A stretch of 64,000 nt of DNA from Candidatus Thorarchaeota archaeon (GTDB lineage Archaea; Asgardarchaeota; Thorarchaeia; Thorarchaeales; Thorarchaeaceae): assembly GCA_029855935.1 (NCBI GenBank), contig JAGSHN010000031.1:32001-96000 (forward strand), read 5' to 3'. Below are positions 32,688 through 64,000 of the stretch, piece by piece. The position numbers were made by a program, and so were the translations under genes. A model generated the notes under the pieces. That model saw nothing but the letters and a program-made list of their open reading frames with translations, searched no databases and was not told the DNA's origin. Positions within the stretch are counted from its first letter, which is position 1; the number at the start of each line of letters is the position of its first letter.

Positions 32688-33695
32688 ATGGATAGCAGGT
32701 CAATGAGATCAATGGTTGAGATATTCCCCGAGCTCTTGCTTCGAGGGAGCGTGAATCAGGACGTGCTTGAGAGAGCCGATATGATACGTGAGCGCGGAAT
32801 GCAGGGGATATGTCTCGTCGGGATGGGTGGCAGCTCGATCGCCGGCGAGGTGTCCAGAGCGCTCCTCCAAGGAGAAACGGAGATTCCGGTCATCAGCGTG
32901 AGAGACTACCGCCTGCCTCAGGCCGTCAACAGAGAGTGGACAGTTCTGGTCGTGAGCTACTCGGGCAACACAGAGGAGACACTCTCCGCCTTCGATGATG
33001 CCCGTCGTCGTGGTGCCGAGATATTTGCCGTGACAACAGGTGGCAGGCTAGCGGAGCTCGTACACCAAGACGAGATTATCAGACTGAGTTCAGGCCTGCA
33101 GCCAAGAGCTGCACTCCCACATATGTTCTCGCTGGAATACACTCTACTGAGAAGACTGACGGGCCTGCCGGAAGTCGACCTCTCAGATGTAGCCGCTCAC
33201 CTGAAACGGGCAAGAGAGGCCTGGCGTGATGGGAAGCCGATCTCACCACAGAGCATCACATCAGCGCTGATTGACAAGATACCCCTGTTTGTGGGGTGGC
33301 GACATCTGGCGCCCGTGGCATACAGAGCGAAGTGTCAGGTAAATGAGAATGCCAAGGCGCCAGCACTTTACTCTGAGATTCCGGAGTTTGACCACAATGA
33401 GATCGAGGCTTCGGGTAGATACTCGGCTTCGAGAATAGTGCCCATCTTTCTCAGGAGCCATCTGGAGGACGAGAGAGTCGCACTCCGGATACGGGCCACG
33501 ACGGAGGTGATGAGAGAAGAGGGGGCAGATATCGTTGAGATACCTTCCCTTGGTCATGACAGCCTGACGGAGACCCTGGCGGCCATTCTCTTCTGCGATG
33601 AGGTCTCTGTGGACCTCGCTGACAGGCTTGGTGTGGATGCGACTATTGTCAGAAGAATCGAGCGTCTCAAGAGGATCCTCGCAGGCGAGGGCTAG
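32688..33695 (+). CDS. Bifunctional phosphoglucose/phosphomannose isomerase (SIS)
   Basis: GMGGS, SYSGNTEET, QPRAA, ENAK, PEFDHNEIE. Confidence 0.9.
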   Translation: MDSRSMRSMVEIFPELLLRGSVNQDVLERADMIRERGMQGICLVGMGGSSIAGEVSRALLQGETEIPVISVRDYRLPQAVNREWTVLVVSYSGNTEETLSAFDDARRRGAEIFAVTTGGRLAELVHQDEIIRLSSGLQPRAALPHMFSLEYTLLRRLTGLPEVDLSDVAAHLKRAREAWRDGKPISPQSITSALIDKIPLFVGWRHLAPVAYRAKCQVNENAKAPALYSEIPEFDHNEIEASGRYSASRIVPIFLRSHLEDERVALRIRATTEVMREEGADIVEIPSLGHDSLTETLAAILFCDEVSVDLADRLGVDATIVRRIERLKRILAGEG

Positions 33696-61600: not shown

Positions 61601-61978
61601 ATGAACGAGAGCGAGGTTCCTATCGAGTTCCAGTTTGAGGATGGACAGGTATTGAGAGCCGTTCTCGATGTGGTCAGGGCCCCGCAGATTGTTGATGCAA
61701 TCAGGCACAGGCTGCCCCTTGAATCGAGAACAGTCCTTGTGAGAAACGAGATGAAGATACCGCTGGATATTTCGAGGGGGAATCAGAAGCCAACCCACGA
61801 GGTCAAGGCTGGCGACATAGCATATATGCCTCTTGGCGACTCGCTCTGTATCTACCTCGCGGACATGCGCACCTTCAGCCCAGTGAACGTGATTGGAAGA
61901 GTCAGAAGCATCGACAACCTGGATATGCTAAGGCACCTTCGCCGGGGCGCAAGGGTCACGGTGAGGCTGAGCGAATGA
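61601..61978 (+). CDS. Cyclophilin-like fold protein (DUF369-like)
   Basis: GDIAYMPLGDSLCIY, SPVNVIGRV. Confidence 0.8.
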   Translation: MNESEVPIEFQFEDGQVLRAVLDVVRAPQIVDAIRHRLPLESRTVLVRNEMKIPLDISRGNQKPTHEVKAGDIAYMPLGDSLCIYLADMRTFSPVNVIGRVRSIDNLDMLRHLRRGARVTVRLSE

Positions 61979-62080: not shown

Positions 62081-62632
62081 CTATATCCTTTGCAGCGATC
62101 GCAGGAGCTCTCTTGTCTCCGAAGACTCACGCGGTACTGGGTCAACGACTATACCTGGCTCGTATGTTTCGATGATGACCTCTACGCCTGAGTCGCGTAC
62201 TCGCTTGAAGCCTCTCTTTGACAGGGCACGTACAGTCAGCGTGGTAGTGTCGAATTGTGTCTTCCCCGTCGCCTGCCCCACGGCTGCATCATGCCTGAGC
62301 CGACTTCTCAACATTCTGACCTGTTCTTTCAGCTCGGCAACGCGGACCTGAAGCTCGTTTCTCTCCTCTGTCACGCGCCGCTCGGCCTCAAGCAGCGCCT
62401 CATAGTCCTTCATCGGGACAAACTCCTCGCTTCGATCGATCCAATACACTGTTGTGCCGTCTTGTCGGCGCCTGGTACGTACGAGCCCGAGAGCCCTCAA
62501 TACTGCAATGACATCATAGACTCGCCGCTTGGGGACGCCTATCGTCAGGGCAATAATGTCACTCCGGATGCCCTCGTCCCCGCACTCCTTTATGAGACTG
62601 ATGCACTTCTGGGCCAACTCAACGAGCTTCAC
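62081..62632 (-). CDS. E2F/DP-like winged-helix transcription factor with coiled coil
   Basis: VPKRRVYDVIAVLRALGLV...VYW matches the E2F/DP RRxYD signature; heptad region follows; GAGGTG RBS before GTG 62632. Confidence 0.85.
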   Translation of the reverse strand: MKLVELAQKCISLIKECGDEGIRSDIIALTIGVPKRRVYDVIAVLRALGLVRTRRRQDGTTVYWIDRSEEFVPMKDYEALLEAERRVTEERNELQVRVAELKEQVRMLRSRLRHDAAVGQATGKTQFDTTTLTVRALSKRGFKRVRDSGVEVIIETYEPGIVVDPVPRESSETRELLRSLQRI

Positions 62633-62728
62633 AGTTGCACCTCGGTGGAGAATCCTGCATGATCTCATATGGAGAGAAGGTGGTCCCCCTACTGCCGAAC
62701 TCTGTCTTAAGTGTTTGTATTATCCTGT

Positions 62729-62785
62729 CGATTTTTCGCGGTTCCGATTTTTCGAGAGGCGTATTCGGCCCACTGTGGCGCGAGA
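62729..62785. promoter_or_regulatory. Candidate E2F-like binding sites
   Basis: CGATTTTTCG twice (62729, 62745), the first extending to TTTTTCGCGG; TGGCGCGAGA at 62776. Confidence 0.5.
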
Positions 62786-62863
62786 TAGCAGCACCGACAA
62801 TTTGATAACATACAGTCAGGGGCCGTCAGTTGCTTGAAACGCAACAGAGCGGCGGCGATAGTG

Positions 62864-64000
62864 ATGAAAAGAAAGAGAGTAATCATAATGGGTGCTGCTG
62901 GCCGAGACTTCCACAACTTCAACGTGTACTTTCGTGACAACGAGGAGTACGAAGTTGTGGCCTTCACGGCAGAACAGATCCCCGGAATAGAGGACAGAAT
63001 CTATCCCCCTGAACTCTCCGGAAGACTGTATCCTGAGGGCATCAAGATATACCCTGAGGAGAAACTGCCCGAACTGGTCCAGAAGTATCAGCCAGAGCAG
63101 TGCATTCTTGCGTATTCCGACCTGTCGCACATAACGGTCGGACATAAGATAGCGTGGGTGAACTCCCTAGGCCCCGACATGCGTCTGATGGGGCCGACGA
63201 CAACTATGCTGAAGAGCAAGAAACCGGTCATTGCTGTATGTGCCATCCGGACAGGCTGCGGAAAGAGCCAGACCTCACGCAGAGTCAACAAGATACTCGT
63301 AGATATGGGGCTCAAGCCAGTCAATGTCAGGCATCCCATGCCCTACGACCCGGATCTGACCACACAGATAGCGCAGAGGTTCGAAACACTGGAGGATATG
63401 GACAGGTACCGCTGCACGATTGAAGAGCGGGAGGAGTATGAGCCCATGATAAACATGGGTGTCGTGGTCTATGCTGGGGTGGACTATGCAAAGATCCTTG
63501 AGCAGGCGGAGCAAGAGGCAGACATCATCACATGGGACGGCGGAAACAACGACTTCCCCTTCTACAAGCCCGACCTGCTCATCACGGTCGTCGATCCGCA
63601 CAGGGCCGGTCACGAGGTGACGTATTATCCGGGTGAGACCAATCTCAGGATGGCGGACGTGATCATAATCAATAAGGTCGAAACCGCCGACTATGAGAAC
63701 ATAGAGAAGGTCAGACGGAATATCGAGGCGCTCAACCCCGATGCTGTGGTCATCGACGCAGCCTCACCAGTCCGTGTCGAGGACATAAGCGTCATCAGAG
63801 GCAAGCGTGTGCTCGTCATCGAAGATGGCCCGACAGTGACCCACGGTGAGATGCGGTACGGCGCGGGCTACATTGCCGCTCGCAAGGCTGGTGCCACGAT
63901 TGTTGACCCACGGCCGTATGCGGTGGGCAGCATACGCGACACCTTCGAGAAGTACCGCCATCTTGAGAATGTCCTGCCAGCAATGGGTTACGGTGCCGAG
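62864..64000 (+). CDS. Predicted GTPase / cyclic 2,3-diphosphoglycerate synthetase-like, 3'-truncated
   Basis: MGAAGRDFHNF, RTGCGKSQT, RHPMPY, TIEEREEYE, WDGGNND; absent from ORF track because no stop in window. Confidence 0.85.
   Translation, partial: MKRKRVIIMGAAGRDFHNFNVYFRDNEEYEVVAFTAEQIPGIEDRIYPPELSGRLYPEGIKIYPEEKLPELVQKYQPEQCILAYSDLSHITVGHKIAWVNSLGPDMRLMGPTTTMLKSKKPVIAVCAIRTGCGKSQTSRRVNKILVDMGLKPVNVRHPMPYDPDLTTQIAQRFETLEDMDRYRCTIEEREEYEPMINMGVVVYAGVDYAKILEQAEQEADIITWDGGNNDFPFYKPDLLITVVDPHRAGHEVTYYPGETNLRMADVIIINKVETADYENIEKVRRNIEALNPDAVVIDAASPVRVEDISVIRGKRVLVIEDGPTVTHGEMRYGAGYIAARKAGATIVDPRPYAVGSIRDTFEKYRHLENVLPAMGYGAE

Follow-up and report, generated by a model that had tools for sequence, protein, structure and literature searches.

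The E2F proteins form the central G1/S switch of eukaryotes, and eukaryotic E2F genes carry their own sites. Homologues of E2F in Asgard archaea are listed as eukaryotic signature proteins. Their presence in Asgard genomes was reported in a 2024 review (PMC7617429), and a Candidatus Freyarchaeum protein is already annotated in GenBank as 'E2F family transcription factor'. PMC4862756, citing Zheng 1999, names RRxYD as the DNA-recognition motif. According to the same paper E2F requires an 'SGCGS' core, the consensus site is GCGSSAAA, and the base before CG is strictly G in the sites of eukaryotic E2F. Full-text literature searches combining E2F with the names of Asgard lineages found no study of the DNA sites or targets of Asgard E2F.

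The gene described here lies in a 64-kb window, the whole stretch of DNA analysed, from a Thorarchaeota (Asgard) archaeon with a 97%-complete genome of 2.97 Mb. An initial annotation had read it as an E2F/DP-like factor preceded by eukaryote-style E2F boxes, a possible ancestral autoregulatory circuit in which both the protein and its cis element would predate eukaryotes. The features of the locus, in window positions, are as follows.

61601..61978, plus strand: cyclophilin-like PF04126 gene, the convergent downstream neighbour (Pfam, 55.4 bits)
62084..62632, minus strand: E2F/DP-family winged helix-turn-helix (wHTH) gene, 183 aa, GTG start, stop codon at 62081-62083
Within its protein: wHTH, residues 1-64, with K35-R36-R37-V-Y39-D40; long helix, 74-123; small C-terminal domain, 124-183
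62638..62643, minus strand: Shine-Dalgarno-like GAGGTG, 5 nt before the GTG start (GGGGTGCA in orthologues)
62703..62722, minus strand: BRE/TATA-like block, gene strand AATACAAACACTTAAGACA, including CTTAAG at 62706-62711; putative promoter
62729..62739, minus strand: proximal box, gene strand GCGAAAAATCG, a copy of TCGRAAAATCG with 1 mismatch, 107 nt before the start codon
62745..62755, minus strand: distal box, gene strand TCGAAAAATCG, an exact copy, 16 bp upstream of the proximal box
62777..62786, plus strand: third box of the initial annotation, TGGCGCGAGA, not conserved and probably due to chance
62864..64000 and past the window end (C27 94864 to about 96198), plus strand: cDPGS-like P-loop gene, the divergent neighbour (PDB 9sxb, E 6e-11)

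The protein has a genuine winged helix of the E2F/DP family and is an already recognised Asgard member of that family. In the Pfam search that the initial annotation had proposed, PF02319 (E2F_TDP) scored 36.4 bits (E 4.3e-9) against a cut-off of 25.7, and a six-frame search of the genome returned the same gene at 38.3 bits as the only PF02319 match. Among the matches listed from a collection of 5.8 billion proteins (120 homologues), all carry PF02319, and the names, where given, are Thorarchaeota, Asgard group or Lokiarchaeota. The second-best Pfam family, TrmB (PF01978), stayed below its cut-off of 25.6 with 21.7 bits, and the NCBIfam TrmB model gave 12.2 bits against 600, which places the protein outside TrmB; the NCBIfam search as a whole found nothing above cut-off. 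The closest PDB chain by single sequence was E2F4 (E 0.002). A profile of 57 sequences compared with the PDB retrieved E2F8 (1.9e-7), E2F4 (2.4e-3) and DP2 (0.72), all within the helix-3 region, and no natural MarR or TrmB chains; known structures of the family include 1CF7, an E2F4-DP2-DNA complex, and 4YO2, E2F8. Helix 3 holds the RRxYD motif as KRRVYD (KRRVYDVIAVLRALGL in the minus-strand ORF), and P34, K35, R36, R37, Y39 and D40 are invariant in the alignment of 57 Thorarchaeota (Thor) sequences. To our knowledge RRxYD is not a feature of TrmB. The wHTH with RRxYD that had been read from the DNA is thus borne out by the E2F_TDP score, the invariant motif and the best PDB matches.

Of 76 genomes sampled from the Thor family, 70 have the orthologue; 30 loci were taken, of which 28 had usable upstream regions. 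Since the orthologues are mostly 183 aa long and begin V/M-KLVELA, and GAGGTG lies 5 nt upstream, the true start is most likely GTG 62632 rather than ATG 62668. The ORF had been listed as 62081-62668. The upstream regions contain GGGGTGCA in 16/28 and GCACCCCA in 21/28 cases. From the window (62560-62700, minus strand) and the orthologous loci, the mRNA of the E2F-like gene apparently has a leader of ~50 nt or more, inside which the upstream ATG at 62668 would fall; the leader is partly conserved within genera, and its extended Shine-Dalgarno sequence GGGGTGCA strongly so.

Behind the wHTH, a coiled coil and a beta-rich tail had been proposed, giving the domain order of E2F/DP. An AF2 model built with an alignment is confident for the wHTH at residues 1-64 (block mean pLDDT 86-91) and for one long helix spanning 74-123 (pLDDT as high as 97), and leaves the C-terminal ~60 residues poorly defined, with no more than two short strands and a helix at pLDDT 44-63. 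The helix agrees with the proposed coiled coil and lacks any sequence match to the CC-MB or DP domains; the description of the tail as beta-rich is weakened. Pfam gave no match to E2F_CC-MB (PF16421) or to the DP dimerisation domain (PF08781) in the protein at E<=1, and the profile search of the PDB linked no E2F/DP CC-MB chain to the helix or the tail. Because neither method ties these parts to CC-MB or DP, the E2F/DP domain order holds only loosely, as a wHTH, a helix and a small domain, a layout common to TrmB-type regulators. Foldseek against the PDB recovered a generic winged helix only, with 1cf7_A (E2F4) in 36th place yet with the highest identity (31% over 65 residues), and it was discarded as a family test, the wHTH not being distinguishable from MarR, ArsR or Z-alpha folds.

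Partners were sought in the same genome. The DP dimerisation domain PF08781 was not found there, and RB_A had no match in the 97%-complete genome, a weak negative in that control genomes likewise had none. The protein ends at residue 183, without a C-terminal extension able to carry a transactivation domain, and a search at E<=0.01 returned no longer homologues, whether fused or of eukaryotic length, which is weak evidence.

What is truly conserved at the locus is the TCGRAAAATCG box, present twice within the divergent control region. The window holds CGATTTTTCG (TCGRAAAATCG on the gene strand) twice, at 62729-62738 and 62745-62754, against 0.03 expected in 64 kb, and the 16-bp period agrees with the second copy 16 bp on that had been noticed initially. 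Phylogenetic footprinting was carried out as an unbiased k-mer survey of 250 nt upstream at the 28 loci, with expectations from dinucleotide shuffles. TCGRAAAATCG was found in 22/28 upstream regions (0.02 expected), and the top common 10-mer, CGAAAAATCG, which is CGATTTTTCG on the gene strand, was exact in 18/28. The other two k-mer signals were the Shine-Dalgarno sequence GGGGTGCA and AACACAAA, one of the top shared 8-mers and part of the BRE/TATA-like block. Of the 28 loci, 26 have a proximal copy that is in gene orientation and between -100 and -123 relative to the start codon; each of these 26 has a second copy, facing either way, at a distance of 16, 25, 36, 55-62 or 77 bp upstream of the first. 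Directly 3' of the proximal box the orthologues have a putative promoter block of the form A(A/T)(A/C)ACAAA-N3-5-TTAAATA, and the TATA-like CTTAAG of the initial annotation is indeed inside this conserved block. The Thor proteins whose genes carry the conserved box are only about 50-60% identical. The self-complementarity of TCGA allows a reading of the box as TCG(A)-N4-TCG(A) flanking an A-tract, a form that would suit a dimer.

The strings quoted in the initial annotation are all present (TTTCGCGG at 62734-62741, TGGCGCGAGA at 62777-62786 and CTTAAG at 62706-62711), and the initial reading would have the protein attach to its own promoter through eukaryote-type boxes (TTTSSCGS or TGGCGCGAGA), closing an E2F-style autoregulatory loop. 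The invariant RRxYD is in its favour, as are the presence of both strings at the locus and the enrichment of E2F-type boxes upstream of homologues in other Asgard families described below. Footprinting upstream of orthologues, which had been suggested as a check, speaks against it: TTTSSCGS occurs in 1/28 regions, the window itself, against a shuffle mean of 1.8, TTGGCGS in 2/28 against 1.5 expected, and CGCG is depleted (7/28 against 13 expected). Even members of the same genus (L003, L006) lack the look-alike boxes. Frequencies are at chance level, with 10 copies of TTTSSCGS in the window (9.4 expected) and 55 in the intergenic DNA of the genome against 68 for the reversed pattern. We regard this reading as improbable. 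TTTCGCGG overlaps the edge of the proximal TCGRAAAATCG box, and it matches TTTSSCGS because the conserved box happens to precede CGG, in this genome only; the proximal box reads CGATTTTTCGCGG here, and the two nearest relatives carry CGATTTTTCGAAAG and CGATTTTTCGTAAT. The base before CG is T in the Thor box and G in the eukaryotic E2F site. The look-alike E2F boxes of this genome are a chance by-product, and a tempting over-reading is thereby corrected.

The E2F-like and cDPGS-like genes share a divergent control region of 231 bp and stand head-to-head in 27/30 Thor-family loci. The cDPGS-like P-loop protein is a distant relative of cyclic 2,3-diphosphoglycerate synthetase and has a weak match to the cobW P-loop family of Pfam. 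Its gene does not adjoin the E2F-like gene outside the Thor family, and where the two are not adjacent the box is upstream of the cDPGS-like gene in 0/20 cases. In genomes without the E2F-like gene the cDPGS-like gene is either missing too or placed at a contig end. The cDPGS-like gene is highly conserved and nearly universal in Asgard archaea, found in 248/301 sampled genomes at 58-89% identity, without a curated family match. On the other side, the pairing of the cyclophilin-like and E2F-like genes is deeply conserved. The cyclophilin-like PF04126 gene is tail-to-tail with the E2F-like gene in 28/30 Thor loci and in 18/20 loci of other families (L108-L127). Taken as a whole, the locus is arranged as for any ordinary local regulator of prokaryotes.

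We lean slightly towards the view that the TCGRAAAATCG pair is the putative operator of the factor itself, autoregulatory or local. The E2F-like protein is proposed to bind the two boxes in the 231-bp region and would do so as a homodimer joined through its long helix, each box offering two TCG(A) half-sites that are spaced by 8 bp and enclose an A-tract. A homodimer is most likely because there is one such gene only and no DP or Rb domain was found. With the proximal box immediately 5' of the gene's own BRE/TATA-like block, binding would result in feedback control of its own transcription, and the divergent cDPGS-like gene may be controlled too. Archaeal sites upstream of BRE/TATA are usually activating, and activation is for this reason slightly favoured. 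The autoregulation proposed at the outset thus survives in part, as a conserved cis element does lie in the gene's own upstream region next to a TATA-like element, but the element is not of the E2F type.

The box is rare as well as fixed in position. Exact TCGRAAAATCG occurs 4 times in the 2.97-Mb genome, against 0 for the reversed pattern, and in another genome of the genus the counts are 10 and 0, respectively. A few further copies (on contig C29 of this genome and in G069) mean that the box is not exclusive to the E2F-like promoter. Near-copies upstream of two other genes were followed as candidate regulon members and rejected, the box being kept in only 1/28 orthologous loci of a gene for an SSB-like OB-fold protein (C10) and in only 6/30 of a SAM-methyltransferase gene (C21); both genes serve as negative controls for box conservation, which is specific to the E2F-like gene by comparison. 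The SSB-like protein (PF21473; C10:8904-9404, L046 1905-2402) belongs to an unusually expanded family, for which Thor-family genomes give 1-9 matches each and usually at least 3.

Two further groups of copies were observed. On C29 an ORF-poor stretch holds exact TCGAAAAATCG boxes at 32955 and 33563 (L045 1956, 2564), inverted relative to each other and ~600 bp apart, and the pair is kept in a second species (G069 C7:119194 and 119789, L033), with 69% DNA identity over 157 nt and a possible conserved small ORF of 54 aa between the boxes (tblastx). G069 also has a second tandem exact pair, spaced by 16 bp like the boxes of the E2F-like promoter (C5:125340 and 125356, L032 3341 and 3357), in a 1.1-kb stretch without long ORFs adjoining an EMC3/TMCO1-like (PF01956) gene.

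An inverted pair flanking a conserved stretch in two species would fit conservation of another kind, that of a transcribed leader or RNA element or of a replication- or recombination-related repeat. At the E2F-like gene, however, the boxes are 5' of the conserved BRE/TATA-like block and so are probably not transcribed with it, the distal copy varies in orientation and in spacing, as one would expect of sites for a protein, and Rfam gave no match at the second box-pair locus. We consider such an origin very improbable.

Full-length homologues (28-38% identical over the whole length) and short ones consisting of the wHTH only are present in many Asgard families, those named by cluster look-up being Hodarchaeota, Odin/Asgardarchaeia, Borrarchaeum, Freyarchaeum and Helarchaeota. 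The Thor box was found in 0/20 of the full-length homologue loci of other families that were scanned. E2F-type boxes were surveyed in 300 nt upstream of 40 E2F-like genes from other Asgard families (GC 16-47%), with 500 shuffles; the counts, which related genomes inflate and which are estimated to reflect some seven independent box-bearing lineages or paralogues, were as follows.

TTGGCG[CG], for example AAATTTGGCGGGAAA: 11/40 loci, 0.95 expected, count reached in 0/500 shuffles
TGGCG[CG]: 15/40 loci, 2.4 expected, count reached in 0/500 shuffles
TTTSSCGS: 9/40 loci, 1.7 expected, count reached in 0/500 shuffles
[CG]GCGGTT, the reversed control: 0/40 loci, 0.72 expected, count reached in 500/500 shuffles

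The enriched boxes include TTGGCGS, TTTGGCGGGAAA and TTGGCGCCAA. Boxes with a GGCG core, all intergenic, precede the genes of families f2 (TATTTGGCGCTAG), f6 (TTAAGGCGCCAGC), f14 (AAATTTGGCGGGAAAC, CAATTTGGCGGGAAAT), f15 (AAATTGGCGCCAAAT, GTGTTGGCGCC) and f21, and that of Hodarchaeota is GAATGGCGCCAGC; families f16, f19, f28 and f30 have no E2F-type box. These GGCG boxes fit both the 'SGCGS' core required by E2F and the consensus GCGSSAAA (PMC4862756). An ancient E2F-type box upstream of the E2F-like gene therefore gains statistical support from other Asgard lineages. The claim that protein and cis element predate eukaryotes fails at the present locus, where the E2F boxes are unconserved, and with TTGGCG[CG] at 11/40 elsewhere it may hold for the phylum.

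A wider regulon was considered in the f15 genomes, where TGGCGCCA is 3-13 times commoner genome-wide than its reversed control. As 21/24 of these sites are inside ORFs, in Gly-Ala codons, no regulon can be claimed. Among the few intergenic TGGCGCCA palindromes in f15 are those at G029 C9:402762 (L134) and G018 C25:999 (L143), which stand 87-88 nt upstream of an 81-aa ORF conserved in both genomes.

Across 25 sequences from 12 Asgard families G21, R36, R37, Y39, D40 and W64 are invariant. Helix 2 reads G-I-(R/K)-S-D in Thor proteins and G-I-N-N-x-E-L in other families, and the wing reads RRFDGTTVTW and RE(K/R)xGT(R/K)IxW, respectively. These substitutions coincide with the Thor-specific box, a correlation rather than proof of altered recognition. 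The recognition helix PKRRVYDVIA is identical in the Thor protein and in the short f14 homologues, whose upstream regions carry TTTGGCGG, so the Thor protein would have to read a different core from theirs.

This identity points to a second possibility, that the TCGRAAAATCG boxes are the sites of a different regulator, or an upstream promoter element of the divergent pair, while the E2F-like protein binds GGCG-type sites elsewhere. It would also agree with the restriction of the box to the one family in which the cDPGS-like gene took up the divergent position, and with the further copies at the second conserved locus. Against this, the intergenic DNA of the genome has no enrichment of E2F boxes, and the orientation and distance of the proximal box are fixed to the E2F-like promoter and not to that of the neighbour. 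Self-sites are, moreover, the commonest arrangement for archaeal wHTH regulators. We consider a separate regulator rather unlikely, and keep the self-operator as the preferred reading.

A tentative and more far-reaching scheme, to which we give somewhat less than even credence, is the following. The recognition code of E2F and its self-targeting would predate eukaryotes, with several Asgard lineages, Hodarchaeota among them, binding TTTGGCGG and TTGGCGCCAA in the factor's own promoter. The Thor family would be derived, its factor keeping the RRxYD helix with an altered helix 2 and wing and being retargeted to TCGRAAAATCG, and its gene having been placed head-to-head with a core P-loop gene.

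The analysis supplies two candidate sites for Asgard E2F, TCGRAAAATCG in Thorarchaeota and TTGGCG[CG] in other Asgard families, and one candidate target, the factor's own promoter. Whether an archaeal E2F is a real E2F thus becomes experimentally addressable.

The Thor factor resembles eukaryotic E2F/DP in its winged helix, which scores above the Pfam cut-off, in RRxYD, and in the helix that follows the DNA-binding domain; to the DNA-binding domain of E2F4 it is 31% identical over 65 residues. It differs from eukaryotic E2F/DP in being a protein of 183 aa, present in one copy per genome and without a DP partner, in having no detectable CC-MB, DP or Rb-binding regions, in an upstream box that is TCGRAAAATCG and not GCGSSAAA, and in the prokaryote-style, divergent and local arrangement of its locus. 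With archaeal TrmB-type regulators it shares the wHTH, the long dimerising helix, a C-terminal domain and the local control of neighbouring genes that we propose, although its score for TrmB (PF01978, 21.7 bits, cut-off 25.6) is well below that for E2F_TDP and it is without the sugar-binding domain. The nearest relatives are the other Asgard E2F-like proteins, which belong to the same family, have the same cyclophilin-like neighbour and share the invariant G21, R36, R37, Y39, D40 and W64. Unlike the genes of f2, f6, f14, f15 and f21, the Thor gene has its own box in place of their GGCG-core boxes, adjoins a cDPGS-like gene, and encodes helix-2 and wing signatures of its own.
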